The position numbers and the translations under genes were made by a program. A stretch of DNA of 64,000 bases from Cenococcum geophilum (lineage: Eukaryota). The stretch is taken from contig CP158635.1 of NCBI GenBank assembly GCA_050273025.1, positions 16,244,001 through 16,308,000 of the forward strand. The letters run 5' to 3'. This document shows, piece after piece, positions 1,193-26,993 of this stretch. Numbering within the stretch: the first letter of the stretch is position 1; each line of letters begins with the position of its first letter. The notes under the pieces were generated by a model. It did no database searches. It was not told the origin of the DNA and saw only the letters and a program-made list of their open reading frames with translations.

Positions 1193-4100
1193 ATGCCGGG
1201 TAAAAAAACCGCTGGTCGAAGCAGTAAGCTCCGGACTTTGTTTAGCAAAGTGCTGACTGGGAAAGAAAACATCACATCAAGTAATTCGAAGCAGTTCCTT
1301 GAGGCAATATGTGACCAGCCAGAGCCCGCTATATGTATCCAGCGGCTTGTCGGAAGCTGCCACGGCTGCCCCGCTCTGCAATCTTCATTGAGTTCTAATA
1401 CGCTACCAGCCTTTTTGAACGGTCCCACATCTGCTTTCATTAACTACCTCCAGGCCCATGAACTGAAGACGATCTGTGGCGGTGAAGTCCTGCGTCAGAT
1501 AATATTAAAAGTTGTTGATACACCACTTACATGGGACGCTTTTCTCGAAGCCGCGAGGTCTCAGAAGCTCACAGAGCATGGAGCCGAAGCCTTTTCGTGG
1601 CTTTTACTAGAGTTGCTCTCTTTACCAATGGAAAAAGCAATCACCTATGCTGCCGTCGCGCAGGATCCAAGCATACATAAACAGCTTTTACAGGGCCCCT
1701 CAGTTGAAGTCCGGCTGCGAGCACAACGAATCGTACATATAACTAGCAACCTCACAGCTAAGCACAAAAATGATGCCGGCGGTCCCGGTGGACGGCATGA
1801 TAACGACTTTGCCGACATACGACAGATATCTATTCTTCCAACTCCGGACGAACTCGCATCGAAGGACCCATATCTGCCTCGAGCTAATGAGATGGATAAT
1901 TCTCATAACAGCCGTGAAGGCCTTGCATTCCACATCGATGCTCAATTCAGATTGTTACGCGAGGACATGCTGCGTGATCTACGCGAAGAAATACAGATCG
2001 CCCTCATGGTGAAGAAGGGACGCCGTAAGGGGATGTGCATCGAAAATTTAAGTATGACGGGAGTTAGGTGTGACGAGCGGCAGCCGTGGTCGTTACAATT
2101 GCAATGCGTGGAGGATCTCCCCCAATTGCAGGCCAAGACAGGAGCTGCCCGAAGAAAGTTTCTACAAGAGAATACAAAGTTTCTGAAGAATGACTCTGTT
2201 GCCTGCTTAGTGGTGGATGACGAAGTTATTACTTTGGGTACCTTGATTAGGGATGACAACCTCCTGGAGCGAAACCCCCCAGTGTTATGCTTTCAGATTC
2301 CAAAACCGGTGATAGAAAAAGCCTTGCTACGGATTAAGACCGCGAATAACGTCAAACTGGTCCAGCTAAGCACCGCTTTATTTGCCTATGAATCCGTTTT
2401 AAAGCAGCTGAAAGAAATCAAGGAGCTGTCGATGGAGGAAGAAATACTTCGTTGGGAGCAAGGCAAATGCCTGCCTCTTCCTAACTATCACCCGAGTACT
2501 GATATGGTCAAACTCATGGAAGACCTCGAAACAGATCATGCATTTGATTTGAAAGATGCATTGAAGCTACCTTCTCAAACGAAACTTGATGGATCTCAAA
2601 CAAAATGCTTTTTGGCAGGGCTTCGACAACGGATAAGCTTAATCCAAGGTCCTCCAGGAACCGGGAAATCGTTTATCGGATCTCTTATCGCCAAAGCTAT
2701 CAATGACTATTCCAAGGAAAAGATTCTTGTGGTATGCTACACTCATCATGCCCTCGATCAGTTCCTTAAAGATCTATTAAATTTGGGTATATTAGAATCA
2801 GACATTGTCCGGCTTGGATCGATCAAAAAGGCAACGGCAAGGTCTCAGGCCATTTCACTTACCCAAATGCGATCCAGCGTGAGGCTGACTCGTGAACAAC
2901 GTGAGATGTTGAATTTGATGAAACTAAAAGTCTCGGAGGCTAGCCATACGTTGCACGAGGCTTTCGCGGGCTTTCAGCAGGCAGAATTTTCAAAATCTGA
3001 TATTTTGGAGCATCTAGAGTTCCGGTCCGAGGGTCCACCGTTTTTCGGTGCTTTCGAAATACCTGGAGATCGTGATGATATGATGCGAGTCGGTAGAAAA
3101 GGGAAGGTGGCTAATCGCTTCTACTTGCTTGACAGATGGTGCCGTGGAAAAGACGCAGGAGTATTCCAGAGGGAGCATGGAAAGGAGTTTCAGATTGTCT
3201 GGAGGATGCCAGCCAAGAGTCGTATAGAAGCTCTGAAGGAATGGAAGGAAGAAATGTTGAAAGAGCGCTTGGACAGCATTCACGATGCGGGAATTGCCTA
3301 CGATGCATCGCTTGAGAAAATTAATGCGATACACATGGAGAAAGATCTTAGAGTTATCCGTCAAAAGCGCATCATCGGATGTACTACTACGGCGGCAGCT
3401 AAATATGTGCAGGCTATACAATCGATTGCTCCAGGCATCCTACTTGTTGAGGAGGCAGGAGAAATCCTCGAGAGCCATATACTTACTGCACTTAGTCCAG
3501 ACACGAAGCAGCTAATCTTGATTGGCGACCACAAACAGCTTCGCCCTAGAGTGCACTACGACCTTAGCGTTGAGAAAGGTTGCGGCTACGACCTGAATCG
3601 ATCCCTATTCGAAAGGCTCATCCTTCGGAACTATCCTCATCAAGTATTATCTCAGCAACATCGAATGCGCCCGGAGCTGTCGGCGCTGGTGAGGCAGTTG
3701 ACGTATCCAGATCTAATCGATGACCCAAGGACGCAAAGAAGACCTGATCTGCGCGGCTTCAGGGACAATCTGATATTTGTCAACCACAAGGAAAACGAAA
3801 TAGAGATGGAAGACGTGCCTGATTGGAAGGATACGACTTCACCTTCATCGAAGAAGAATTTATTCGAAGCAAAGATGGCTCTAAAGTGTGTGCGTTATCT
3901 TGGCCAGCAGGGCTACAGGACTGATAACATTACCGTGTTGACGCCGTACCTCGGTCAACTACGTCTCTTACTAGATGAGCTGGGGAAAGACAATGATCCT
4001 GTGCTGAATGATTTGGATTCCCACGATTTAGTCCGTGCTGGATTGATGCCTGCGGCGTCTGCTGACTTGGGAAAGCCCCGTATCAAGATTTCTACAATTG

Positions 4101-7100
4101 GTAGGTTTTGCCGCCTTTTTTACTGTAAAACTGGAACTATTCGCTGTGCTTCGCAATTTTTTCACGGTCCGAATGAAGGCTGAACTAGCACAGATAATTT
4201 TCAGGGTGACGAGAGCGATATTATCGTTATTTCTTTAACGCGGAGTAACCTTCATAGAGACATTGGTTTCATGACTTCTCATGAGCGTCTGAACGTTCTA
4301 CTTTCGCGGGCTCGGGATGCGCTTATCCTTATTGGTGATGCGGAGACATTCATAGGTTCTCGGAAAGGTGGAGGGTTGTGGCAACGCTTCATGGGGATGC
4401 TTAAGGATGGAAACCATATATACGATGGCTTTCCCGTAAAGTGTGAGCGCCACACGGACCGCATCGCCCTTTTGCGAAGCCCGGAAGAATTCGATAAAGT
4501 TTGCCCAGACGGAGGATGCACAGAACCATGGTTAGTATTAGCTCCTATTATCAAGCATATGCTAATGAAGAGTATACAGTGGCGCGATGCTAAGTTGTGG
4601 CCTACACCCGTGTCCCCAGCATTGCCACCAGCTGTTCGACCACTCAAAAATGGCCTGTGAAAGAGTGGTAGAGTTTAAGTGCTCTAAGAACCATATGGAA
4701 CGGCGTAAATGCCACCACTCTCAGTTATCGACCTGCCGCGAATGCAACCTTGATGACGAGCGCAAACAAAAGCAGCTAGAACTGGACCTTGAATTACAAA
4801 ATAAGCGCGACCAAGCCCAAACATCACATGCAGTTGAGATGGCAGCGCTCGATCGTCAAATACAGAAGGTTAGGGAAGAGGCAGCCGAGAAAAGAACAGC
4901 CATTGAACGAACGCAAGCGCTAGAGCAGAAGAGACGAGATTTAAAGGTGGCCCAGCTGCGTGTCGAAACACCTCGGCCGAGAGATACAGCAGACGTTACC
5001 CTTTGTGCTTTAGACAATGAAGCTTCACCTGCTTCAACGGCGACAAAGAAGGCTGAGGTGCTCAAGCCCAATCGAACTGATGATAGAGAATCAATTGACT
5101 GCAAGATAATTACGGATGCATATAGTAAATCCGAAGCGGAGTGGGAACGACAGAAACGAGTTGATGGCGCGTCAAATGAAGCCATAGATAGTCTAATGGG
5201 ACTTACTGGCCTGGAGGACGTCAAGTCCAAGATCCTGAGCATCAAGGCTAAAATAGAGACCGCTGGAAGACAAGGAAGCGATATGAAAAAAGAGAGGCTC
5301 GGGATGTTGATGCTCGGGAATCCTGGAACTGGTGAGGGCAGCCCACCAAGAGTTTTCATGTCAAATTTAACAACCATTTAGGCAAGACAACTGTTGCTCG
5401 CCTTTATGCCAAATTTCTTGCTTCTGTTGGTGCGGTACCGGGGACAGAATTCGTAGAGGTAACTGGATCCACCCTTGCGCATGAAGGAGTCACAGGAGTA
5501 AAGAATAAAATTGAAACGATTATCAATGCCGGAGGAGGTACATTCTTCTTGGATGAAGCTTATCAACTTGCCTCAGGTAACAGTTATGGAGGGAAAGCAG
5601 TCTTGGATTTCCTGCTTGCAGAGATCGAAGAAAGGGTGGGAAAAGTTGTCTTCATATTGGCCGGTTATAGAAAAGAGATGGAGAAGTTTTTCGAACATAA
5701 CCCAGGCTTCGACAGCCGCATGCCTTTTCGACTTACTTTTGCTGATTATACGGACAAAGAACTTACGGCAATGCTTAGTCGTCTCGTAGAAAAGAAGTAC
5801 GGTGGGCGTGCTAAAATTGAAGACGGTTTGAATGGTCTTTTCATTCGAATACTTGTTCGACGACTGGGTAGGGGTCGAGGTATTGAAGGATATGGCAATG
5901 CACGTGCCTTGGAGAACGCCTGGGCTAAAGTTACCGAGCGACAAGCTAGTCGTCTACACCACGAGCGTATTACTGGTGGCACCCCTGACGATTTTGGCTT
6001 TATGAAGGAAGATTTAATAGGGCCTGAGCCCTTAGGTGCAATCCAGCACAGCAAGGCTTGGAAAGAACTTCAAACTTTGATCGGCTTAAATGTTGTCAAG
6101 CAATCCGTCAAAGCGCTTGTTGATCGTATCCAGCTGAATTACCGTCGAGAGCTCTGTGAGAAACCTCCGATTGAGGTAAGCCTCAATCGAGTCTTTCTTG
6201 GATCACCTGGCACAGGCAAGACGACAGTTGGAGAGCTCTATGCGTCGATTTTGGCTGATCTAGGACTGCTTTCAAAGGGAGAAGGTTAGACCCACACCTC
6301 TATCTAAGTTAACCTCCAGAAATTGCAGCCCATGGTGCTGTGTGAAAAATTACTTGCTTTTGAGGAATTTAAGATTTCCTCTAACCCAATGCTAACGAAG
6401 CATATAATAGTTGTAACCAAAGTTCCGGCAGATTTTGTCGGCAGTGCCCTCGGAGAGTCTGAGAGAAATACGAAAGCAATTTTAACAGCAACCGAAGGTA
6501 AAGCCCTCCTTATAGATGAAGCGTACGGACTCTATCCCGGCGGTAAAACAGTTGGAAATACCGTAGATCCGTATAAAACCGCCGTAATCGACACACTCGT
6601 GGCCGAAGTCCAAAGCAAGCCAGGTGAAGATAGATGCGTACTACTCTTAGGGTACAAGGAACAAGTGACGGAGATGTTAGAGAATTCGAATCCAGGTCTT
6701 GCAAGACGTTTCCCTATTAATGAGGCATTTTATTTTGAGGATTTCAACGATAGGGAACTTAAAGAGATTCTCGACTTAAGGCTCCAGAAGCAAGGCCTGG
6801 AGGCGACGGAAGAGGCGAAGAACGTTGCCCTTGAACTTCTTCGCAGAGCCCGGGATCTACCAAATTTCGGAAACGCAGGAGATATTGAGAACCTGATCTC
6901 CCATGCGAAGGAAAGCGAGCAAACGCGTTGTTCATTCGTGGATCCAGAGACGCGCGGATCGGACATCTTGTTCCTGCCTCAGGACTTTGATGAGAATTTT
7001 AATCGGGCTACAAAATCCGCTGACAGCTGTCGAAAGCTCTTTGCGGATATTGTGGGTTGTGAGGAGCTTATAGGACAACTAGAAAAATATCAGCGAATCG

Positions 7101-8558
7101 TTGCCAACACAAGAGCTCGGAAGAGGGATCCACGAGAACATATTCCTTTCAACTTTATTTTCAAGGGCCCGCCAGGTAGGTTGCCATGGCTAACTATCCG
7201 ACTTGACCACATCTAATATTGTGTCAGGCACCGGAAAGACTACAGTTGCCCGAAAAATGGCAGAATTTTTTTATGAAATGGGCATATTATCGACTAAAGA
7301 CTACTTAGAATGTTCTGCATCCGATCTTATAGCCCAATTTGTCGGCCAAAGCGCACCAAGAACTAGAGATACCTTAAGAAAAGGACTGGGCAAAGTACTC
7401 TTTATAGATGAAGCCTATCGCTTGTGCGACGGAGAGTTCGGACGGGAAGCAGTTAACGAATTGGTTGATTGTTTAACGAAACCACTTTTTGTGGGCAAGA
7501 TCGTCATTATACTCGCTGGTTATACCGAAGATATAAACCGCCTTCTCAAGGTAAATCCTGGGCTGTGTAGTCGGTTTCCAGAGGAAGTCGTCTTCGGGAA
7601 CATGCAACCAGAAGAGTGTCTGACGCTTTTACATCGGCAACTGCAGCAGAATGGGATAGACATTGGATCGGAGTTCCAGGAGACCAGATCCGAAAGCTAT
7701 CTTGAGCTGATTGCTATTCTAAAAGAGCTCTCCAGCCTTTCATCCTGGGGTAACGGTCGTGATATCAAGACAATCTCCAAATCACTCACGGCTGCGGCTT
7801 ATGAAGGTGCTGGCCAGAGCTCTCCCTCTCTCACCGTGACGATGGTAGACATTTTTCAAGCTCTAAAATCAATGTTGAAGAGTCAGAGGGCAAGGTGCAC
7901 AGACGAAACACAATTGGGTGATTCGTCTGGTGGTGTCGCGAGCAAATCTCTCAACCAACGCCCTGAAGCAAGCCCGCCAATGCCGTTTAATATTGCTACT
8001 TCGATAAGTTGTGCTACAGGCTCGACTGACCCAAACCCAGTTATGGAGAAAGAGAAGGTAGGGGACGGTTCACAGCTAATTAATTCGTCGCCACGAGACT
8101 TAGGTGTCTCTGATGAAATCTGGCAACAGCTTCAGGCCAATATTGCAGCTAATGAAGCTTCGGCCAAATCCCTACAGGAATCCATTGCTGTTCAAGAGCG
8201 AAACATTGAAAACTTCAAGGAAAAGGAAATTAGAGGCGAGCACACTCTAGGCAAGTTGCAGGAGATTATAATGGAAACGAGCCATGCGTCAAAAGATGAG
8301 ATCAATGATCTCAAACACAAGCATGAGGAAGAAAGGCTTCATAATCTAACTGTGAAGCGTGCTAAAGAAGCAGCAGAAGAAAGTTTGAAAAAGGTTCGAG
8401 AAGAAGAGGCGAGGAGACGGCAGGGGGAAGCCAGGGTACAGGAAAAACTGAGGGAAATGGGCGTATGTCCGGCGGGTTTTCGTTGGGTAAAAGAGCGATC
8501 CGGATATAGGTGTGCAGGAGGGGCACATTTCGTTCCCAATGACCAGCTAGGTCTGTAG
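1193..8558 (+). CDS. ZNFX1/SAD-3/Hrr1-like SF1 RNA helicase fused to a Cys/His finger, a coiled coil and three CbbX/SpoVK-type AAA+ ATPase domains (~2331 aa, 6 exons)
   Basis: Exons 1193-4100, 4194-4530, 4580-5331, 5382-6284, 6411-7175 and 7228-8558 total 6996 nt in one frame. All introns are GT-AG, and splicing restores motifs across the junctions (STI|DNFQG, GNPGT|GKT, GPP|GTGKT). Helicase motifs: RHDND..I.ILPT, QFRLLRED, QGPPGTGKS, VEEAGE, LIGDHKQL, QHRM, DNFQGDE, LNVLLSRA. AAA Walker A/B pairs: GNPGTGKT/FFLDEAY, GSPGTGKT/LLIDEAY, GPPGTGKT/LFIDEAY, each followed by NPG..(S/R)R. Confidence 0.93.
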
Positions 8559-8729
8559 TGGCACTGTATATCGCGTGTGATGATGTTAGGATTCTTTCAT
8601 AATGACTTAGAATGATTGTAGCTGTTAATGGACTTCTTCATGTTATTGCTGGGTGCTTATTTGATACGTGGCCATTGCTAAGAGATTCAAGCCCTGTTCC
8701 TTGACGGATCTATGGGTATCTACGCCCAT

Positions 8730-10337
8730 CAGGGTTGCAAATCAATCAACTCAACTCAACTGAGGCCTTGAATTGGTTGAATTGATTGACTCAATATTGA
8801 GATCTTGGCAACTATTTCAACCGAATTCAACTGGTGTAGGTGTCAGCAACTATCGCGAGTCTTGGCATGATGTTGATGTAGGAGGACCTACTTGGCGACG
8901 CTCCCATCGTTTCCTATCGTCCTTTCTGTCGCCCAGCTTTCAATATAAGCCTACTGCGAGTCTTGGCATGGTATTAACTTACCATCCTGCCGTATCTATA
9001 CCTTTCCTTCCTTCTGCGGCTGCTTCAGCTGCCAACTACCATATTGATTATGCCTTCCTTATCCCATGATCCTACCACCATTAAAGCTCCAATTATATCA
9101 GATTATAGTCGTGCGCAATTGGCAGTAAGGAGTAAGCCCGTAAGGCTGAATATGCGTTTGGGGTCTAACGATATTGGTTAGAATTTGCTAGTAGATGCGT
9201 CGGCATTACTGTTTAAGCTGTGATCTAAGGCGCGCTAGAGGTCGGTAGGTATAGTAGGATTAGAGCGAGCTGTAGAAAGGCTTAAGGTAGTCGTTTGGCC
9301 ATTCTCTAATGCGTTAGAAGCCATAGTAGTAAAGCTCTTCTTACCTACTAATGCTGGGGTAAACCTTTTTTGTAAGGGAGACTAAGGGTATGTTCGGTTG
9401 CAACTCCAGAATCAATCTGGAGGCTCCAGAATCAAACTGATCTGGAGGTCAAATCTGAATCTGACGCGATCGTTCGGTGATTCTGACGACTTTTCAATCT
9501 GGAGCTCCTCCAGATCGGCAGTCGCGTTAAATTTGCACGCTTTACCGTATAAGGTAGTTGTTCTGGAGCTCTTGGCACCAGAATATTCTGGAGGCGTTAA
9601 CCTCTATCTCCAGATTCAGAATCAATCTGGAGCTCTACGCGACGACGACTTTGTCAAATATGGCGACTCCACCTGCATACACGATCCTCACATAGCACCT
9701 GTACGTTATATATGATGTCCTTCTTACTCTCGTAATTAGAGTCTTCCTGCGCATGCGCGGCGAGCCGGGCGTGATACGGGTGACGGGGTAGAGGGCCTCA
9801 ATCGACTTGATTGACGATTGGCACGAGTGGGAGACTCCATTGTATTACGACACTAAGGGAGGAAGCCGCGATAGAGGCCTGAGGGCAGAGGTGAGCGCAA
9901 AGGTGGGCGCAAAGGTGGGCTCAAAGGCGGGTTTAAAAATTGATTAATGATTTGGAGCCTCTTCTGGAGCCCCCTCTGGAGCCTTACCGAACAATTGACT
10001 CAATTACAGATCAAACGAAGCCATCAAATTAGACGCCACTAGTACCTTACTAATTGACGCCGGAGGATGCACGGATCAAGACAATTCTGATCTGGAGGCA
10101 ATTTGCAACCGAACATACCCTAAGAAAAATAAGGTTTAGGGCATGACGACTTGTTAACTCTAGTAATATATCTATATAGTATCAAAAGTTTTAATATTAT
10201 TAACCAATTCAATTCAATCAGGGCCTTTAGATTGATTGAGTTGCTAAGCTAGCGAACTCTCAGTTGGTTGAATTGATTGAGTCTTGGCAATCAATTTAAT
10301 TCAATATTGAAACCTCGTTGATTGATTTGCAACCCTG
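8730..10337. mobile_element. Non-autonomous hAT-type DNA transposon
   Basis: 21-bp TIR cagggttgcaaatcaatcaac / gttgattgatttgcaaccctg. 8-bp TSD acgcccat (8722-8729) / acgcccac (10338-10345). Subterminal tcaa/ttga-rich repeats at both ends. Confidence 0.88.
9386..10120. mobile_element. PIF/Harbinger (Tourist-like) MITE nested in the hAT element
   Basis: Perfect 18-bp TIR gggtatgttcggttgcaa / ttgcaaccgaacataccc. TAA TSD at 9383-9385 and 10121-10123. Many internal ctccaga/tctggag motifs. Confidence 0.88.
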
Positions 10338-10751
10338 ACGCCCACGGTAGTCTATACATTAAGGCCCCAGTTTTTTAAACTTCTGTGGGTTATTCTAAGC
10401 CCCCACACAGATCTTACCATACTAAAGTAAGTCGAACGTACAAGCCGGAAATAAGTGATCTATGACGATTATGGCCGTCTATGTGAGCCTATGAGGCCTA
10501 TACGGCTACGTATGCGCTTCAGGGAACAGGGGCTCAAATAGCCTAACAGAACACACTTAGGGTCGACTAATAATCCTCTTTAATTGTATCACTTTTCCTT
10601 GAAAATACAAGCTAATGAGAATTCAGGAAATCTAAGAGCGATTACGGACTTTTCTGATCACCAGTTGTAGAAAGACTAAGACACTTAATGTATATTTGAA
10701 TACTTTTCTTCTTCTTATACCATGCGCTTATTGGGTTTCAAATTGGTCCAT

Positions 10752-13700
10752 CTAAATATAGAACATCTTATCACGTACTCTTTCATGAATCCGCACACGG
10801 CCCGGATCCACTTCTTGCCCTGGCGGCCCTCCTGTCACACTTGCGGTAGGGCTTGCTGTCGGTGTTGGATCAAATAGTCCGCTTAGATAGCACCGAGCCC
10901 TTTCACAAACAAGATCAGCGTAATACGCTGGGGGACAAATGCTAACTGCCTTAGTAGCCCTTCCAAATAGATAGCATAGATTATGGGTTAGATCCTCCAC
11001 TATATCTGCTGCACTCTGGAAGGGCTGCTGCACCATTCTGCGACGGAATATCTCGTCGTAAATCGTATAGTAATGGGCAGGGCGAGCCGTTCCTTGAATT
11101 GCAGTATGAGCTTGCAAGAAGAAATCCCAGTTTCGAGCTTCTGTAACCCCGCGGTCGACAACGGTACCATTCTGCGGGTTAGAGGACCGGTCAACGTCCT
11201 CTTTCTTGGTAGGGTAGAACCGTGTGTTATGGCGTTTTCCGACAATGATTATTGTTATGTACGGGATGCCTTGCTTGGTAAAGATAGCCGGGTAGAGTTC
11301 TTCGCACGCTTTACGGAGTGCCGGAAGTTCTTGATCAAGAACTTGGTGGTATTCGCCTTCCGATACCCCATCTCTATACACAAGGATATTCTCTGGATAA
11401 CTATCATTCCGTTTCATCCATAGGTGGAGGCGAGATTTGAACAAGCTGTCAAGACCTGAAACCAATTCCTGTTGGGCAGTTTGGATCTGTAAGTCTGCCG
11501 GCCACTGTGCAAGCCATCGATCAACAGAAGCAACAATGCTTGCCACACTGGGCGCATTCGAAGAAGACCCAGGAGAAGGGTGGGTAACATCGATCCCTAC
11601 AACCATAGTCTTGCCCTCCGCCAATATGCCAAGCTTGGAATTGTCCAGAAACTGATTTCGCCCGCCAAGTTTGAGGTTTACCTTCAATGCCACATTTGCA
11701 AAGTATTGGCTGTTAGCACGAGCAAACTTTTCTGCAACCACGCAAACATTGAGAAGTCCCTCTTTGACGTCGCAAGCGTACTTGACGCTGTTATAGATAG
11801 TCGTGTCAGCAGAGGGCATAATCACTAAGAGCAACCTCGGCGGAGGCTTTGTGGGATTGCTCGTGAATCGGTGTATTGCTTGTGCAATTTCAGCTTCGGC
11901 ATTCCCAGCAGTAACGCTCATGTGCAACCCAGGAACGCAATCATTCGCGTTTATTCCAACCTGTCTGAGCGTAGACGTGAAGGCGTTCAAAGACGTATTC
12001 AAACTTGCATCGTCTCTCCACGGATCGAATGAACCCTGAAACGATATCCAAAGGTATGTCCAGTAAGTCAAGTCTGACTTAGTAGCAACTTCGAAAGACT
12101 GCATATTCCAACTACCAAATCTGGGATTAGCAATTTTGCTCCTGCCATACTTCACGTCTGGGCTGTTTAGGACACGTCCTGGAACAACTATCAAATTTGG
12201 CGTCACGTTGATTCCAAAATTACCCTTCTGAGATTAGTAATATCCAGAGTGTAGGCGGAGAGAAATGTACTTACAAGGGTGGAATTAGTAGGATCGAACC
12301 CCAACATTTGAGTTCCTGAAGTAGCGATTGATTGCGCATTTTGAGCTGGTTTGCGTACCGCAAATCTTATCATTTGCTGCGTCTGAGAAGAGCTCAGTTT
12401 CGTATTCGAGGTTTGCCCGGGCAGTACCTCGCACACTTCGGGGGGTAAGTATGACGGGTTTTGCCGACTGCCAACATTGATGACAGGTAGGGTTGGATCT
12501 TTGATTGTAATGTCGTGAGCTATGACAAAGTGAGCACGATTACATTTGGGGATGTTCTTCTGCCTTGATATGAGAAGACTAACTTTGCCTAAAGAAATCA
12601 TACACGCTAATATATTGACCCTGTGAAGGAGGCTCAGGGCCAAGTTTTGCGGCCTTCCTCCCCCTATTTCCGTTTGTCACACTTGTCACCTGCGGTTTCC
12701 CGGCAGGCCCTTGTCCACGGTCTCCCAGAAAGAACTTGACATCTTTGGGTCCACTGCCAAATTCAAGGACAATGGGCGGGTTTTGCTGACCACGCCCATC
12801 GTCGCGTGTTGCTAAGCCCAGTACTACCTTTATCCTCGGGATCGTGGAACCAGATCTATTCTTCTTCACGATATGGGTGACTTTGATAGAAAGCTTTTTA
12901 AGGAAATTTCCCAGCTTTACCGTACTTGGGCCATTGGTTCTGATATATGTAAGCATCAACTTATCGAGAGGACCGTCATCATAGAACGCCGCGTGTTTGA
13001 CCTGAACGTTGACGAGAATGCGGGCAGTAGCTGCGCGGACGCTCACAAAAAATCCTCGAAGAGCCAAAAGCCCTGCTCCTAAATCAAACCTTTCGGAGGT
13101 AGCCGCGGCTAGGTGAAAGTGCTTATTCGCGCCGACAGAGGCTGTGTACGAAACTGCCTTGGGATGATTGCCTACAACTATATTAAGGGCCTGGATTATC
13201 TCATCCTTAGATCCGAATAAAGCTCCGGAATGAGATGAAGTAAGATAATCTATGAGCTCGGATACGGTGAGCGCGCCGGTGGGCTGGAGACGGACTCGGT
13301 ATATTCTTGCATTCGGAGCGGGGTCGTCTTCATCCTCGGCCTTATAGTGTATTGCGTAATCATCTTCATCTAGATCAAGCTCAGTCTTGCTAATGAGATT
13401 GGATTTGAAATCGGTGGCGATGTCGTGCCCATATTGAACCAGGTGCTCTTCAAGCAGGAGCTGAACTATCCTCTTAACCTTCTTACCCATTGGTGTTCTG
13501 CCGCGCTGATCCGGCAATATTTCAATACTGTAACGGAAGAGCAGCAAATCTCCAAACGCCATCAAATCCAAATAGTTTGCCCACAGCAACACCTCCCTCC
13601 CTCGGGTACCAAATCCGGGCCGTAGAGGCAGCCTCGGGTCGGATGCTGGCTTTCCCATTGGGGATTTCGCCCGGACAAAATTGGCTGCAGTCTCAGTCTC

Positions 13701-14061
13701 CCTTTCGATACGAGTGACACGCATGTCTGGCTTGGCTAGATGGCCGCCATTAGGACTGGAAAACACTCAGAGATTAGTCTCCAAGATGTAGTAGAACGAA
13801 ATTGCAAAGATCTCACTTGAAGATTTGTGCATCAATGGGGCCGCCTCGGCCCCTGCCAAATCCACCGCGATCGCCTCTGCCTCGACCTCTTGCACCGCCT
13901 CGCTGGTCTTGACGATATGTGGAGAATCCCTGTGGGGCTGGAGCCCCTCGTCCTCTTCCGCTTGCATGGAACGGAAGAGAGGAGTCGCCATGGGCACGGC
14001 CATGGGCACGACCACGGCCGCGATCGCGACCGCGACCACTGTCTGATGGGTTGCCAGACAT
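10752..14061 (-). CDS. ago: Argonaute (QDE-2-like; RG-rich N-terminus, N, PAZ, MID, PIWI), ~1045 aa, 4 exons
   Basis: Exons 14061-13817, 13755-12584, 12519-12275 and 12227(or 12224)-10752, with GT-AG introns keeping frame. Motifs: LRPGFGT.G..V.LWANY, YISVYDFF, LPVINVG...PSYLPPEVC, NVALKVNLKLGG, GIDVTH, YRDGVSEG, KRHNTRF, QGTARPAHY, PAYYADLVC, and C-terminal MFYI. Confidence 0.96.
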
Positions 14062-15163
14062 TGGGAATGGTGAGTAATACCTCTTTACAAAGATTCAAGA
14101 TTCAACTAATTTGAGGAGCGTAAGGATTTATTATACTGCAGCTACCCCGCCTTCTGCCCGGTTAGTGACGAATCAATTGAAGTTCAAGGGTGAATGACGT
14201 GGAATTCCTTTGAACAACGATGGCTTTGGGCCTAAGGCCATGTTTTACGCACGTACGCATTTTAAGTCACGGAGGTCCGTGCAGAGCGAGAAAAGGCTAG
14301 AGTTGTAACCTTATATAGAAGTTAACTATTAACTTCTTAAAACTATTAGTATTAAAGTTATTAGAATAATAGCTAGGCTAGTATAGAATACATAAAAGAG
14401 GCTCTATAAGAAGATATATACAAGTTGACTTAGCATGTGTATATTAGGTAAAAAAGATTTTAGTCTTAAATTAACCCTTTTATATTTTTATACCAAAGGC
14501 CCTTAAAATAGCAACTAAGATAGCAGTGTTAACTAACCCTAATTTAATCTTGGTTGCCGGCTGAGTCGCTTACTAAGATAATTTAGGGGTAATTGAGTTC
14601 TAAGGGTATGAGCTTAAAGGTCAAGAGCCTTATAAACGTATTAAGACTTATAGACAGCTATACACATCCTTCGGAGCGAGCGGGAAAATATATTGGGGTA
14701 ATTCTATTAAATCTGTTGCCATATATAACGTGGGCATAGATTCCTATTAATCCTTTAGGGAACAGGGCCTTAATCGCTGTACCTGGCCGTTCTTCTGCAC
14801 CAAACTATCTATAATATGGCTGGGTTCCGTCCATCCCGTAACTTTCCACTCTCCGCTTTACTTCATCCGTTGTAATCTAATAAATATATATAGTGAGCCA
14901 AAAATAAACCAGGCCAGGTTTCTCCTTGTATACTTTGGTTAAGATTAGGCTCTACGTAAGTTCGTCTAAAGCGACGATTCCGAGATATTAAAGCTAAAAT
15001 TAGGTACGGGTATTACGAGCCTATTTATTTCATTCTATTTGAAAACAAAGACATGTCAATAAATATTTCAGTACCGTATACTTCTTTGGGATAAAAGGAA
15101 ATCGTAGTCTTATCTGGGGGTCTATTCTTTACCAGCTCTAAATTAACCTGAATTCTCCGTCGC

Positions 15164-18100
15164 TTAAATTCTAAGTCCAACAACAGCAACGCAGGTAGCA
15201 GAAAGAACGAACAACACCGCACTGACAAAGAAAGGCAAACCAACCAAGGCGTCCACATTTGCATCAAGCCCAATAGCTAAAACCTTTGAAAACAAGACAG
15301 ACGCAATCACCTTGCCACTAATACTAGCTATAGACAGAGTCGCCATTACGCGCGCGACCTGCGCCCTATCAATCAAGCTAATAATATACGCTTGCGTTGC
15401 CGTCGGCAAGCCTTCGCCGAAAAGGTACAAAATGACAGCAACGATAAAGGTACCCGATGTAGAGCTGAAGCCAATTAGAACTGAGCCGACAGTGAGGATA
15501 AAACTACTGCCAGCCATGACCGCAAAATGAGCACGGCCTGAGGATCCAAGGTAGAATGACGCAACGCGACTAACGGTTGGAAGGAGTAGGCTGAAGTGGA
15601 CCAGCATGAGAATTCCTTCTAATGTAACGATATAGGAGGCCTGTGGAAATGTCCAATGCAATTTTATGACCGGGTACTGAATGAGGCCGAACCAGTCGAT
15701 TGTTTTGATGCCGGTGGCTGCGAAGAAGATTGAGAGGGCCAGGAGAAGAATGTTGAAGACGCCGACGCCGGAGACGCTCTCTTGGAACGCATGATTTAGC
15801 TTTTTCCATCGACAATATAACCACTTCTTAGATTTGGTCTCGCAGATATTGGTCATTGGATCGGGATCCTGAGGCTCCTCTCCATTTTCAGATGCCGGGG
15901 CATCAGCCACTGCTGTCCGATTACTCTCGCTAATGGTCTCGGGAAATACAAAGAGAGTAATAGCAGCAGTGACAGTGGCGAGTGACAAACTGACTGCTAA
16001 ATTGACCTGTGGAGTCCCACCTTTGCCATCAAGGTTCATGAGCAAGGCCCCAATACTAGGGCAGAAAGTCTGTGCAAGATATTGCATCGAAGTCGTCAAG
16101 AAAAACAATGACGCTCTTTCCATTGCAACAGGCATGACATCTGTGTAGGAGGCAAATAGCATCGCAAGGCCAACGTCGTAATTCCCACCTATCAGCCCAG
16201 GTAGACCGCTTAGATACAGCGCCCATATAGGCACCTTTGGAAAATAAAGATCTTTGGGCATGTGTCAGATAACTCATATAGAGCTATTCATTGATAAAAT
16301 GGGTTGATTGATTGATGATCTTGATTATGTCTTAACCTAGGGCCCCTGGGCTTAGATGAAGGTATCGGAGGTCCAGGTTAGGCTTAGCATAACCTTAGGT
16401 TACGCACGACCCCCTAAGGTCCGCAACATATCATCTAAATATCTGTCAATCGGTAGTCCGTGCACCGATTGTAAGAAAAGAAGGACTCGTGTGTAGATTA
16501 ATCTATAAAGAAAAAGAGGCTATATATATATAAGGTAGTACCCCCCACAGGGGTCCCTAGAGAATGGTAAAACTAGATTAAAACTAGGTCGAGACAAATC
16601 TGAAGCTTATATCTAACAGTACCCGTCACGGTTAATACACCCTCCTAGCTTTAAGCTCTCTAAGATTGAAGCTATATTACCAGTCCTAGCGCAGTACTAA
16701 GTTTCTCGTTAAGGCCAGTCGTCTATAATCTTTGGTAAGGCCATATATAGGCCTACTTGTCGATAAGGCCGCAGGTCGGTAGCTACTTTGTTATTCTTTA
16801 TCCGGTTAACACTAGCTATACTAGTATTTAGATCCTCCTATACTATCTAGCAATCGTCCATCTATGCCTAGATCCTCCCATATACTCTGGTAATCGTCTA
16901 TCTATACCTAGATCCTCCTATACTGTCCAATAATCGTCTATCTAGTATCTAGCTACGCCGTAGTAGCACGGTTATTATCTTGTCCTTAGCAGTACGGTGC
17001 TAGCGTCGATATAACATAGCAGTAAGGTGCCAGCTCTGGGGTAACGTAGCAGTAAGGTGCTAGCTTTAGGTAAAAGCGGTAATGTGCCAGCTCTAGGGTA
17101 AAGTGGCAATGCGCTAGCTTTACGATAACGTAGTAGTAAGGTACTAGCTCCTGTCCTTCCACTAGCTTATTGCCCCAATAAACCCAAACTTTTAGGCCGC
17201 CTTGTCTCTGGCTCCTGCCTCGTATCTAGCACTAAGTACCTGCCTTAACTCGGCCTGCCTTAATCTAGCACCTTAGTACCTGCCTTATATCTAGCTCCTA
17301 CCTTATCTCTAGCGTATAGTGGGCATTGTTAGTTATAATATTGGTGGAAGGATATAAAAGTAATTACGAGTATATTAATAACTAAGGTACCCAGACACGA
17401 GCCTATAGGAATAGCTGATTAAAAGAATAACTGGTGTATAGGAAACAACTCCGGGCTTATAACTATTAATTGGTAGTTTATACACCGATTATAAGAAAAG
17501 AAGGACTTGTGTATAGATTGATCTATAAAGAAAAAGAGGCTATATATATATGAGGTAGTACCCCCTATAGGGGTCCCTAGAGAATGGTAAAACTAGATTA
17601 AAACCAGGTCGAGACAAATCTAAAGCTTATATCTAATAGTACCCATTACGGTTAACAATATCACCCCCCCCCTTTAGTGGTGGCCCCTACTTTTTAAACG
17701 CGTTTTTAAGGCCTAGGTTAGTACTAAGTTAGTATAGAGGGCCTTAGCGTGCCTTTAACCTTACTATTGCCTTAACAATCTATTTTCCAACCCTCTTCTG
17801 TCCTTATGCCCGCGCTAGCTTACGCGGGGCTTCTAATTTTATATAGAAAGGCTTACTATAATTATAATTATATAATATAAAGCCCTCTTCTCCTTCTTCT
17901 CCTTTAATATTTACGCGTTTAGTGGCTTTATTTACCTACGCCGCGCTTATGCGTCTCCCCCTTACCTCTTGCGGATATAGAGTCTTTTAAGAATCTCCTT
18001 ACCCTATGGTCCACTTTACGGTCGACGGAAGCCCCCTTAGCCTCCTCCCCCTATAGCCTCTAGAGCGAATTCAAGGCCTAAACAGTACGGCTATATAATA

Positions 18101-24100: not shown

Positions 24101-26356
24101 GTGCTAAAGGAGGCCCTTTATTTAAAGATATGGCCTAAAACTAACGTCTGGCTAAAACGTATAGAGGCCTACTACCTAGGTAGGGCCAATAATAAGGTTA
24201 TATAGCTTAACCTTGCGGGCTTAGGATTTCTACGCCTCCTTTATATACTTAGGGTAATCCTATTATAGGACTTAGTAATCCTACGCAAGCAGTTCCCACT
24301 CTACCCCCTATAAAAGGACCCCCTCTTTAGCTGCAAGGAATACCAGAGGTTCGCTACACAGGTAGAAAGTTCGCTAGCTGACGTAGTTACGCTAGATAAG
24401 CTAATAATGCGAAAATACTAGCCCGCCTATAAGGCTATAGCTAAGCTAAAATATAAGGCCGCGATCTCTAAGGTAAAGGGGGTTTAATTACGCGTACAGA
24501 CGATCTTAGAACGCCTTAGCGAAATAAAAAGGTTATTAGTATTATTCGCACCTATATAGATCTAGTAAGGGAAGACAGGTATCTAGATAGGGCCTATAGA
24601 GTCCGTACGTCTACCTTTAGGTAAGCCCGCGCTATCTACTATAACGTTTATTATATTCGCGCCGCCTACTTAGCTATCTATAATATCTATACTGCCCACT
24701 TAGCCGCCGTCTATAATATCCGCACCGTCTACTTAGCCGTCTATAATATCCACACTATCTACTTAGCCGTCTATAATATCCGCACCGCCCGCTTAGCTAT
24801 CTACTATATCCGTATCGCCCCTACTAGCGTAGGCACAAGCTAATACTTAACTATCTCTCCTATTTATTCTTAACCTATAGGCGCCGCTAAGGAAATATAA
24901 AATGCTTTAAGGCAATAATTTGGTTTTCTAGCTTTAGACTAAGTGGACTTTAGGGCTAGCAGGTAGGCCGTTAATTAAAGCTCTTAATTACTACTGGGGG
25001 GCACACTAATAGGTTAACGGCGAGGCTATATTCTATAGCCGTCGCCGTAGGATTATTAAGGATATAAGACGGCGCGTAGAAGACGGTATAGCAAGAGATA
25101 AAAAATAGGCTATTAACTAGCTAGAACAGCTACGAGGCCGGTATTCTTTAAATTAGCTTTATAAGAATATCTAGGGCAAGGGAGGCTCCCTCTTAAGTAG
25201 TAGATAATACCTATTTTACTATAGTAACCAAGACGCCTTAATATAGGACTATACTAGTAACCGAGACGTCTTAATATAGGACTACACTGTAGTAACTAAG
25301 ACGCCTTAATATATAACTGCACTGCAGTAACCAAGACGCCTTAATGTAAAACTGCACTATAGTAACCAAAACGCCTTAATATACGACTGCACTATATTAA
25401 CTAAGACGCCTTAATATAGGACTATACTATAGTAACTAAGACGTCTTAATATAGGACTGTATTACAGCAACTAAGACGCCTTAATGTAGGAATAGAGCCC
25501 GTTTAGGTGTTGTAAATTCAGAGCAACATTACACGACCGTCTAGAAGTACCAATCTAACATAAATTATGTACCTTTTCGCCCAAAATCGCGTGCGAAAGT
25601 ACTCGGGGGCGGTCGCTGCGCGACCTCATGCGGGGTTCGGGCGCGTTATCAGCAGGGGTGGCCCTAACCTCGTATTAACCCGGGTCGTAACCGCGCCAAA
25701 TCAGCCCCCCCAATATGTGATAGATATTTACAAAGCACGGGCCCCGTGCACGTGACTCGTGCACGTCCTACGCCACAGAGAATACAGATTATCTGACAGC
25801 ATGTCAATATATATTGTTTTCTGGAAGGTGAAAAAAGTGAAAATCCCTCACAGAGAATAAGCCAGGAGACGCAAGTGATCGTTACGTTGACTTTATATAA
25901 CACCAGCACGACCTTCCTCCCGTACCGATCGGCCAGCCATCCCAATGGTATCGCTCCGATCATGGCACATAACATACGAATAAACATGATCAAGCCGGCC
26001 GATCTGGCTACTTTCTTCTGGATGCTGCCATCCTTGCACAGACGTTCGGGGATATGCTTTCCCATTTCCACCAGAGGAGACCCCATAGCCATGTAATGCT
26101 TGTAGCAATACATAGCTTCAAGTGCGCGCATTGTGGCAACTTGCTTAACGAAATACTCGGCCTCATTGATAAAGACAATGCAGCAGCCTAGATATGGCAC
26201 CCAACGGTAACGGGGTGAGATGGTTGTGAATGTCGGCCATCTACCGCGATTGGGCGGCGTCGGCAGTGGGGAGAGAGAACCGGAGGGCTTGCGGTGACTC
26301 GGGGGTGAGCGCCTGAGCAGCGGCTCTTGCTCTGGGTCTTGAACTTTAGTTGACAT
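15164..26356 (-). CDS. Major facilitator superfamily transporter (~530 aa) with a transposon-expanded ~9.6-kb intron
   Basis: Exon 26356-25852 carries MFS motif A (GWLADRYGRK) and ends at a GTGAG donor. It joins in frame (T|AT = Tyr) to exon 16251-15164, which follows a CTGAC branch point and AAG acceptor. There are many hydrophobic helices and no stops in either exon. A 21-nt in-frame micro-exon at 25792-25772 is possible. Confidence 0.82.
16444..17657 (-). mobile_element. Small non-autonomous Copia-derived LTR element (TRIM-like)
   Basis: 194-bp LTRs at 16444-16637 and 17464-17657 (TG..CA, partly RIPed) with ATATC TSD. On the minus strand, gttataagcccgg (Copia-type gttatgagccc PBS) follows the 5' LTR and a purine tract ggagggtg precedes the 3' LTR. 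The ~0.8-kb interior has short repeats and no pol. Confidence 0.82.
20005..20175. repeat. ~30-nt tandem repeat (about 5 units); also at ~24651-24821
   Basis: Repeated tatccgcaccgcctacttagccgtctataa-like unit. Confidence 0.8.
20575..20775. repeat. 35-nt minisatellite, 6 units
   Basis: gtaacYRagacgccttaatataggact... cores at 20578, 20611, 20646, 20681, 20716 and 20751. Confidence 0.9.
21090..22303 (-). mobile_element. Second copy of the TRIM-like element (duplicated with its host)
   Basis: Same position in the tandem unit and same TSD (atatc/atatt). LTRs at 21090-21283 and 22110-22303. Confidence 0.82.
25221..25491. repeat. 35-nt minisatellite, 8 units
   Basis: Cores at 25224, 25257, 25292, 25327, 25362, 25397, 25432 and 25467. 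Confidence 0.9.
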
Positions 26357-26993
26357 AGTGATAGACTAATACAAGCCTTGGGGATTTACAGTTTTACTCA
26401 GTCTCATCCGCAATTGCTGCAGCGAAAGACTTTTTGCCGCTAATGAATCATAAGAACAAACCGAGTTCGGAGAGCGCTATGCAGATCCTGCACCATACCA
26501 CGACAGGAAAGCCCGTGCATAGCTACATAAGTTATTTTAAGTTTCAAGCGTTGAAATCTAAAGACTATAATTCTGTTCTTTCAAGCGCGTAAAATCCAAA
26601 CTTTTGTTCAGCGGCCGTTTGGTTTCCATTCTTAAACCCCCCTTTTAATATACCGAAGCAAGAATCTTCGGTACCGGGAGTGCTAATCGCCGATCCATGC
26701 CGCCATCATTTACCCCAGTGCGGATCCATGGCCGGCACGTGTTCCTTTAGCAAAACTAGATAAAGGGGATTTGCCGATCAAGGATGGAACTCTACGGAGG
26801 ACGGAGCGAAAAGAGACTTCCCTTCCTATTTGGGAGAAGCGTGGTTTGGTGCCAAGACCACACCAAAATTTTAACTTCGAGCTTGTAAAAAGCAACTCTA
26901 TACCAACTTTTTGATAGAATCTACTTATTTAATTGCTTGTAATGTCCTCTGCATACCTTCTACTATTCTCCCCTACTATTCTTTAAGCCTAAA

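Follow-up and report, generated by a model that had tools for sequence, protein, structure and literature searches.

A Cenococcum geophilum Argonaute gene paired with a putative ZNFX1-type helicase carrying three AAA+ modules: a candidate co-inherited small-RNA-pathway module

The 64,000-nt stretch of Cenococcum geophilum DNA analysed here (assembly GCA_050273025.1, contig CP158635.1, positions 16,244,001 to 16,308,000 of the forward strand; hereafter the window, whose coordinates are used throughout) carries an Argonaute (Ago) gene and a gene for a predicted ZNFX1-type helicase fused to three AAA+ modules, designated helicase-(AAA+)3. The two genes are convergent (tail-to-tail), their stop codons lie 2193 nt apart, and nested inverted-repeat elements sit inside the gap. 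An original prediction made from the sequence had described two intact convergent genes 2.2 kb apart and had proposed that they form a co-inherited system; the gene models are indeed intact, the RNA contigs described below are spliced exactly as modelled, and the evidence presented here argues that the pair probably serves a small-RNA pathway. The two genes and their main parts are as follows.

14061-10752, minus strand: Argonaute gene, coding sequence with stop; exons 14061-13817, 13755-12584, 12519-12275 and 12227-10752; product 1045 amino acids (aa)
10911-11591, minus strand: predicted Piwi catalytic tetrad codons, D767 (GIDVTH), E808 (QQELV), D840 (YRDGV) and D992 (YYADL)
1193-8558, plus strand: helicase-(AAA+)3 gene, coding sequence with stop, from open reading frames (ORFs) and splice sites; product 2331 aa
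1193-4100, 4194-4530, 4580-5331, 5382-6284, 6411-7175 and 7228-8558, plus strand: helicase exons

The Argonaute has an RG/RGG-rich N-terminal tail (aa 1-80), and Pfam gives the domain order ArgoN (4e-18), ArgoL1 (4.8e-14), PAZ (2.2e-10), ArgoL2 (1.2e-8) and Piwi (4.5e-74). The full D-E-D-D tetrad that had been predicted agrees both with the positions listed above and with conservation in a 43-sequence alignment, where D213, E254 and D286 (exon numbering) are invariant and D438 is at least 90% conserved. Judged by its domains and motifs, the protein is of the full-length, slicer-competent eukaryotic type.

The helicase gene is interrupted by five introns, all GT-AG (93, 49, 50, 126 and 52 nt). 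Pfam recognised a superfamily 1 (SF1) helicase (AAA_11, E 2.8e-23; AAA_12, E 3.1e-16) and, behind it, three AAA/AAA_lid_6 modules. All four P-loops are intact, with Walker A motifs at aa 486, 1328, 1606 and 1886, and Walker B reads VEEAG in the helicase core and DEAY in all three AAA modules. The regions of the protein are laid out as follows.

1211-2365, plus strand: N-terminal region with a helical-repeat domain (aa 7-187), a GGRHDND motif (aa 199-205, nt 1787-1807) and a beta-rich domain (aa 286-391)
2585-4405, plus strand: UPF1-like SF1 helicase core, predicted ZNFX1 type, aa 465-1040 (Pfam AAA_11/AAA_12; best solved relative ZNFX1 9q9z)
2648-2671, 3446-3463, 3524-3547, across intron 1, and 4298-4315, plus strand: core motifs Walker A GPPGTGKS, motif II VEEAGE, GDHKQLRP, DNFQGDE and LLSRAR, respectively
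4502-4769, plus strand: Cys/His-rich cluster behind the core, aa 1073-1145, across intron 2; read from the sequence, resembling NFX1-type zinc fingers
5202-7892, plus strand: three tandem CbbX/SpoVK/EccA-type AAA+ modules (Pfam AAA and AAA_lid_6), with Walker A GNPGTGKT (aa 1328), GSPGTGKT (aa 1606) and GPPGTGKT (aa 1886) and Walker B FFLDEAY, LLIDEAY and LFIDEAY
8160-8555, plus strand: C-terminus with a coiled-coil-like stretch and a Cys/His module, CPAGFRW...GYRCAGGAH (aa 2302-2322, nt 8466-8528), read from the sequence

When helicase exon 1 was compared with solved proteins using phmmer, ZNFX1 (9q9z) matched at 2e-61, Aquarius at ~1e-20 and UPF1 at ~1e-18, and a Foldseek search with an AlphaFold2 model of this exon (mean predicted local distance difference test score 83.2, predicted template modelling score 0.78) also ranked ZNFX1 9q9z first (E 6.9e-27, 24% identity). 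These sequence and fold matches assign the helicase to the ZNFX1 type, with UPF1, Aquarius and SETX more distant. The AAA+ modules matched the NCBIfam models SpoVK, EccA and CbbX with E values of 4e-46 to 9e-16 (57-157 bits), and EccA1 (3.3e-24) and CbbX (4e-21) in the PDB. Since these scores fall far below the equivalog cut-offs of 423-467 bits, the modules are relatives, not orthologues, of those proteins. Walker A, Walker B and the subfamily lid domain are present in each module, as is an NPG(F/L)xSR/RR motif. Pfam, motifs, sequence matches and fold matches thus agree with the predicted ZNFX1-family helicase carrying three AAA+ modules.

The helicase family is large and strongly conserved. 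A homologue search returned 3640 of 7999 scored candidates at E<=1e-3, and Pfam found the helicase-(AAA+)3 architecture in all of the best 120, each of ~2300 aa, from many Ascomycota and Basidiomycota; the architecture is therefore not rare, as might have been supposed. In an alignment of 46 sequences (A2), mean column identity was 57%. The N-terminal residues G199, R201, H202, N204 and D205 are invariant in a 46-sequence alignment, and the Cys/His columns of aa 1073-1145 are at least 90% conserved in A2, with no Pfam zinc-finger model matching them. The C, G, W, G, Y, C, G and H columns of the C-terminal module (pattern C..G..W.....GY.C.GG.H) are at least 90% conserved in A2 as well, and no Pfam family was found on that module. 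The top-scoring homologue (P0001, Candolleomyces, 1057 bits) is, at 4701 aa, about twice the usual length, which could reflect a tandem duplication or the merging of two family members into one gene model. Two sequences nest in the fungal helicase subclade under unexpected labels, P0022 as Bemisia tabaci (whitefly) and P0015, within Nemania, as Lasiodiplodia mahajangana; these are probably contaminated or mislabelled assemblies, or else cases of gene transfer.

Both genes are expressed. Twenty-four runs were listed for window positions 4200-14100, 20 of which hold at least half of the words of that segment, and 7 of those 20 are recorded as RNA. In metatranscriptome contigs of runs X7 and X9, all eight introns (five in the helicase gene and three in the Argonaute gene) were removed with 0 mismatches. 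The helicase contigs measured 7186 nt (X7) and 6995 nt (X9), with the mRNA extending from 1099 to at least 8645, and the Argonaute contigs measured 3546 nt (X7) and 3290 nt (X9), with the mRNA extending between ~10319 and ~14000. In run X21, junction reads were found for all five helicase introns (8, 21, 14, 1 and 16) and all three Argonaute introns (21, 54 and 30, the 54 using a variant joint, 12508/12584, in this run). Stranded raw RNA reads from a close relative (95-99% alike) covered the helicase gene with minus-strand first mates only (bin depths 9-66) and the Argonaute gene almost only with plus-strand first mates (depth 14-60; other strand at most 1.5), and RNA depth between the genes was 0.3-7.6 as compared with 9-66 on the genes. 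Word depths of helicase and Argonaute were 239.8 and 250.8 in X7, and 23 and 54.6 in X9. From the spliced contigs and the stranded reads crossing the junctions we conclude that both genes are real, intact and transcribed at comparable levels in these three runs. They are separate convergent transcription units and not an operon.

The gap between the genes is occupied mainly by the following two elements.

8729-10338, no strand: outer element, non-autonomous, with a 22-nt perfect inverted repeat
9382-10124, no strand: inner nested element, with a 22-nt inverted repeat at 95%

The bases flanking the outer element, ACGCCCAT and ACGCCCAC, are alike at 7 of 8 positions and are likely an 8-bp target duplication. 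DNA word depth over this element was 360-990, compared with 71-82 on the genes, indicating that it is multi-copy. The inner element is missing from metagenome contig L001, which is 98.7% identical to the window at the nucleotide level and matches it over 14337-10120 and then 9351-9161; it is thus an insertion polymorphism between close strains, and the element family may therefore have been active recently. Where the window has the inner element, L001 holds ~68 unrelated bases (12108-12177). The 3' end of the Argonaute mRNA, near 10319, falls within the right repeat of the outer element. The distance between the genes had been predicted to shrink to ~0.35 kb without the transposons; measured stop-to-stop after removing the outer element, it is ~0.58 kb, and the two mRNA ends (at least 8645 and ~10319) would nearly abut once this element is discounted.

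The pairing recurs in other fungi. In annotated genomes, where adjacency was defined as consecutive accessions or locus tags on one contig among the closest helicases and closest Argonautes, the two genes adjoin each other in 10 species of three classes (six Xylariales, Talaromyces proteolyticus, Xylogone and two Fonsecaea), so that adjacency is not unique to this genome. The helicase and Argonaute entries, in this order, are given below.

Nemania abortiva: KAI1122113 / 114
Nemania sp. FL0031: KAI0107176 / 175
Xylaria sp. FL0933: KAI1273974 / 975
Xylaria sp. FL0043: KAI1355075 / 074
Xylaria sp. FL0064: KAI0812107 / 108
X. longipes: CHU98_g4418 / g4419
Talaromyces proteolyticus: KAH8691554 / 555
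Xylogone sp. PMI_703: KAH8810584 / 585
Fonsecaea multimorphosa, two assemblies: Z520_05329 / 05328 and AYO22_05023 / 05022
F. nubica: AYO20_08207 / 08208

Counting species with both a helicase of the window's subclade and an Argonaute among the matches listed, the genes are linked in 10 of 13. They lie on different contigs in Dendryphion, Arachnomyces, Helicocarpus and Lindgomyces, whose helicases fall outside this subclade.

The same arrangement was found in metagenome DNA. A scan with the alignment of the Argonaute clade gave 80 loci, which form 48 groups at >=97% Piwi identity. In loci L007 and L008, a full-length helicase gene is convergent to the Argonaute gene with gaps of 378 nt and 214 nt, respectively. 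By tblastx, the window shares only the two genes with L007 or L008, and L007 and L008 share only that block with each other. The original prediction of a conserved, co-inherited unit is thus upheld by the 10 annotated species and by these two loci with their convergent layout. Among groups with at least 8 kb downstream, a helicase-family sequence lies within 10 kb of the Argonaute in 4 of 5 groups of the window's Argonaute clade (L007 and L008 with a full helicase, L006 with a 3' remnant and L012 rearranged; the fifth, L010, has none) versus 1 of 13 other groups, the sole positive being the L016 group (one-sided Fisher p 0.0077, with clades and thresholds set after the data were seen). At locus L068, whose flank is short, the contig breaks off within the C-terminus of a convergent helicase. 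L001 and L002, the loci nearest to the window Argonaute (98.7% and 95.4% nucleotide identity), are uninformative on the helicase; L001 stops 1.2 kb past the Argonaute gene within a repeat element, and L002 diverges inside the element and stops 2.7 kb later.

Further RNA interference (RNAi) genes join the block in relatives. The order in L007 is Dicer(-) / Ago(+) / helicase(-), the Dicer being the upstream divergent neighbour of the Argonaute with Helicase_C, Dicer_dimer and two RNase III domains. Dicer also adjoins the Argonaute in L010, L012 (order helicase tail, Dicer, Ago) and L028, with Dicer fragments in five further lichen-type loci. In F. nubica, AYO20_08207, 08208 and 08209 are helicase, Argonaute and Dicer-like 2, and F. 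erecta has two Ago/Dicer-like-2 pairs and Cladophialophora immunda one; for a number of Aspergillus, Capronia and Geoglossum species, the Dicer and the Argonaute listed are on separate contigs. The lichen-type locus L016 (486-13467) holds, within 13 kb, an Argonaute, an RNA-dependent RNA polymerase (RdRP; PF05183, E 1.6e-103), an unknown gene and a helicase-(AAA+)3. Since L025 (2-12010), near-identical to L016, has no RdRP, the presence of this gene may vary among close relatives, and L028 (1358-9102), a clade-mate of both, carries a Dicer upstream of its Argonaute. An RdRP shares the locus only in the lichen-type L016 and L019, with a weaker one in L041. In the window, neither a Dicer nor an RdRP, remnants included, was found by tblastn at E<=1e-8, as had been predicted, and no such remnant was found upstream in L001 at that threshold. 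Because the lichen-type loci link different subclades, the helicase family is associated with RNAi genes in at least two combinations of helicase and Argonaute clades. The statement in the original prediction that core fungal RNAi genes are generally unlinked therefore needs revising, as the cluster gains Dicer-like 2 in relatives and, in one lineage, also RdRP.

These layouts bear on the idea that the convergent arrangement is itself what is functional, overlapping 3' ends producing natural antisense double-stranded RNA (dsRNA) and autoregulation whether or not the proteins cooperate. The pair is convergent in all three cases seen at the DNA level (window, L007 and L008), the L007 and L008 gaps are short enough for overlap of the 3' untranslated regions (UTRs), and the mRNA ends in the window flank an inserted element. 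However, the window transcripts do not overlap now, judging by the low intergenic depth, while both genes are still expressed; moreover, helicase and Argonaute are on the same strand in the lichen-type loci, and L012 places the helicase beyond the Dicer. We consider this explanation very improbable.

The two gene trees tell a similar story. The window Argonaute falls in one clade with all linked Argonautes (50 rows, support 100 in FastTree; 35 of 47 rows, support 98 in IQ-TREE). This clade is separate from an Aspergillus clade (support 100) holding A. nidulans AN1519 and proteins named 'Qde2', and from a Fusarium 'QDE-2' clade; N. crassa QDE-2 itself is outside the set. Paecilomyces variotii has Argonautes both in the window clade and in the Aspergillus clade. 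On the question, raised in the original prediction, of whether the window Argonaute is distinct from the QDE-2 type, the answer is that it stands outside the clade of AN1519 and source-named Qde2 proteins in a set without N. crassa QDE-2, and by its placement in the trees the window clade is an accessory, patchily distributed one. The window helicase and all linked helicases form a 28-row subclade (support 100), and the two trees are congruent in that both order the linked pairs alike: the window, then Fonsecaea, then Xylogone, T. proteolyticus and the Xylariales. Both trees also conflict with taxonomy, T. proteolyticus and Xylogone standing beside the Xylariales. Approximately unbiased (AU) tests, whose groups were named after the trees were seen, rejected monophyly of Eurotiales within the Argonaute clade (log-likelihood (lnL) difference 375, p 2e-73) and a grouping of T. 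proteolyticus with Fonsecaea in the helicase tree (lnL difference 340.5, p 4.7e-8, LG+G4). Ancient paralogy with loss is an alternative to transfer as the source of this conflict.

Linkage could also arise through co-mobility or residual synteny, one DNA segment having been transferred or retained with genes that act in unrelated processes. The patchiness of both trees and their conflict with taxonomy, including the two AU rejections, fit such a history, as does the finding that the helicase family mostly occurs without a linked Argonaute. The window pair, moreover, lies beside AT-rich DNA nearly devoid of ORFs: GC content is 0.45-0.52 over the two genes and 0.28-0.44 over most of 14-64 kb, and only 3 stop-to-stop ORFs of at least 120 aa occur within 14000-64000. 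Against this explanation, only RNAi-related genes (Dicer-like 2 and RdRP) recur around the pair, with no other flanking gene common to the window, L007, L008 and L010, and the lichen-type loci L016 and L025 link a different helicase subclade to a different Argonaute clade, which is hard to explain by a single hitch-hiking event. In addition, the helicase comes from the one family that has already been connected with Argonaute pathways, namely in worms, fission yeast, Neurospora and Mucor (in part from the available text of PMC5384783). With RNAi genes as the sole recurrent neighbours and the linked subclades differing between lineages, pure hitch-hiking is disfavoured, and we regard it as unlikely. 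A large mobile element carrying the pair together with further shared genes was likewise rejected as an explanation, as no flanking gene is common to the loci.

The pair can be compared with several known systems. ZNFX-1, Hrr1, SAD-3 and RnhA work alongside Argonautes and RdRPs in small-RNA pathways. Together with WAGO-4 and other Argonautes, C. elegans ZNFX-1 acts on target mRNAs and sustains small-RNA amplification; the helicase core in the window resembles it, but the fungal protein has three CbbX-type modules in addition, along with conserved N- and C-terminal modules of its own. To our knowledge, C. elegans ZNFX-1 has no AAA+ array, and ZNFX-1 and Argonaute genes have not been reported as neighbours there. 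CbbX (red-type Rubisco activase), SpoVK and EccA are the best family matches of each window module, with Walker A, Walker B and NPGL..R kept, whereas in the window three such modules stand in one chain fused to a helicase. Hrr1 (of the RNA-directed RNA polymerase complex, RDRC, of S. pombe), N. crassa SAD-3 and Mucor RnhA belong to the same helicase superfamily, and L016, which puts an RdRP between Argonaute and helicase, recalls the association of these helicases with RdRP; unlike an RDRC-like gene set (helicase, RdRP and nucleotidyltransferase), the window has no RdRP. According to the available text of PMC5384783, RnhA, SAD-3 and Hrr1 are fungal helicases required for RNAi-type silencing with RdRP and Argonaute and measure 1231, 1160 and 999 aa, respectively, and two other, uncharacterised paralogues are attributed to N. 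crassa. At these lengths the three proteins are too short to carry AAA arrays, in line with the earlier statement that characterised relatives lack CbbX-type arrays, and the window family appears to be a separate, uncharacterised paralogue.

Prokaryotic Argonaute-effector operons join a short prokaryotic Argonaute with TIR, Sir2 or nuclease partners. The window pair is like them in that Argonaute and partner genes stay side by side across lineages and are distributed in a patchy, transfer-like way, and unlike them in that its Argonaute is eukaryotic, full-length and catalytically complete, the genes are separate convergent units and the partner has no known effector domain. It had been proposed on this analogy that the pair is a sensor-effector immune module in which the Argonaute detects invader RNA and the helicase/AAA+ protein gives an immune output such as signalling, growth arrest or destruction of ribonucleoprotein (RNP). 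In favour of such a role, the accessory Argonaute clade is patchy and transfer-like, the pair adjoins transposon-rich DNA, and the helicase is ZNFX1-like; in the available text of PMC11574294, mammalian ZNFX1 is described as a sensor of viral dsRNA in innate immunity. The core of mammalian ZNFX1 (9q9z) is both the best sequence match and the best fold match of the window helicase among solved structures, although the mammalian protein has neither an AAA+ array nor a linked Argonaute. Several findings speak against the proposal: Pfam on all six helicase exons gave helicase and AAA families only, with no nuclease, TIR, Sir2, toxic or signalling domain; Ascomycota and Basidiomycota members of the family are strongly conserved and share long invariant motifs, unlike fast-evolving immune effectors; the Argonaute is of a full-length, slicer-competent eukaryotic type; and the neighbours gained in relatives, Dicer and RdRP, are small-RNA biogenesis genes. 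An effector-type immune output is therefore unsupported, and we consider such a module quite unlikely.

Overall, these results support the reading that the pair is a co-inherited small-RNA-pathway module made of a slicer-competent accessory Argonaute and a ZNFX1-family helicase with three CbbX-type AAA+ modules, to which we assign a probability of about 0.62. In such a pathway, a small-RNA-guided Argonaute would mark a target transcript, and the helicase would engage the Argonaute-marked RNA, as ZNFX-1, Hrr1 and SAD-3 do elsewhere. The helicase would then clear or hold the RNP, allowing RdRP and Dicer to make more small RNA. More speculatively, the three AAA+ modules might pair in a dimer to give a six-module ring, and this ring might act as a remodeller of protein or RNP, for example resetting Argonaute complexes. 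The tight convergent spacing (214-378 nt in relatives and, in the window without the element, abutting mRNA ends) may couple the expression of both genes. A complex prediction with the Argonaute MID-PIWI exon (491 aa) and helicase residues 1-460, run without controls, scored 0.00 against a mark of 0.34 and speaks neither for nor against binding.

A number of observations weigh against this reading. What ties the two proteins to a shared pathway is genomic association only, and the similarity in RNA depth of the two genes comes from just three runs. Adjacency in the annotated genomes was read from numbering and not from DNA, orientation being known from the DNA loci alone, and because 6 of the 10 species are Xylariales and 2 are Fonsecaea, about four or five lineages, besides the window, count as independent. 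Linkage is also dispensable in some lineages. Geoglossum simile has the helicase closest to that of the window (67-72% identity), with both of its listed Argonautes on other contigs, and in Xylaria venustula and Scytalidium lignicola helicase and Argonaute are likewise on different contigs. In Xylogone, a second helicase of the subclade (KAH8812154) is 1569 accession numbers from the listed Argonaute on the same contig (KAH8810585). Metagenome locus L010 has Dicer and Argonaute but no helicase in 10 kb, and L006 keeps a mere remnant of the helicase 3' end (12302-12790, minus strand; 33% identity to residues 2154-2306) convergent to an intact Argonaute, which by its sequence looks like helicase loss from an ancestral pair. 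Finally, as the helicase family is far more widespread than the linked Argonaute clade, most of its members must work without an Argonaute neighbour. In essence, co-inheritance, a distinct Argonaute and congruent trees are supported, the effector-type immune output of the earlier interpretation has no specific support, and linkage is not universal.

A broader proposal builds on the small-RNA-pathway module. The pair may belong to a compact, self-contained RNAi cassette of Pezizomycotina, consisting of the accessory Argonaute and the helicase-(AAA+)3, often with Dicer-like 2 and sometimes with RdRP, that is kept by selection and moves between classes by horizontal transfer as a eukaryotic counterpart of the bacterial defence island; the pan-Dikarya helicase family would then be a missing core RNAi factor whose AAA+ ring remodels Argonaute or RdRP complexes. 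We offer this proposal tentatively and, taken as a whole, regard it as doubtful.

Some further observations concern the surroundings of the genes. Upstream of the window Argonaute by 1.1 kb, on the same strand, lies a 366-aa open frame (15167-16264, minus strand) on which Pfam found no family; a 120-aa frame on the opposite strand (15168-15530) overlaps it, and the AT-rich part also holds a 233-aa fragment (25667-26365, minus strand) with weak similarity to major facilitator superfamily transporters; no other sizeable frame occurs in that part. In L003 (2939-3133) and L004 (3189-3372), intron-less transcript contigs of a 73%-identical Argonaute, the 3' UTR contains a piece 65% identical to helicase residues 228-290, directly after the stop codon and on the same strand, which may be the relic of a rearranged or deleted helicase neighbour. 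Beyond the helicase remnant of L006 lie unrelated genes (PfkB, EST1). The unknown gene of L016 (7559-9194, minus strand) and L025 (2734-4369, minus strand), with ORFs of 373 and 170 aa, stands between Ago/RdRP and helicase; no Pfam family was found on it at E<=1e-4. The Atlas clusters nearest to it (0.96-0.97) consist of Ascomycota proteins auto-named 'geranylgeranyl pyrophosphate synthetase' without a common Pfam family, and a weak lead (0.89) points to RAI1-type decapping nucleases. L041 carries a distant RdRP (4872-6656, plus strand; 30% identity to that of L016) ~1.8 kb upstream of an Argonaute that groups with those of Colletotrichum and Ilyonectria outside the window clade, an RNAi gene pair in another lineage.

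Outside metabolism, eukaryotes seldom keep genes of related function in clusters, and the RNAi genes of fungi are generally regarded as dispersed. Full-text literature searches, with most subscription journals and supplements outside their coverage, found no report of Ago-helicase(AAA) or Dicer-Ago-helicase linkage in fungi, and the available text of PMC5148876, PMC7745021 and PMC5384783 makes no mention of such linkage. If the pair is indeed a small-RNA-pathway module, a large fungal protein family that is highly conserved and uncharacterised would gain a testable role in small-RNA silencing, and an accessory Argonaute lineage distinct from the studied QDE-2/RsdA type would be defined. Fungi might, moreover, exchange silencing modules as entire units, and the pair may offer a natural system for learning what a ZNFX1-type helicase gains from an AAA+ motor; this helicase family is important in human antiviral immunity.

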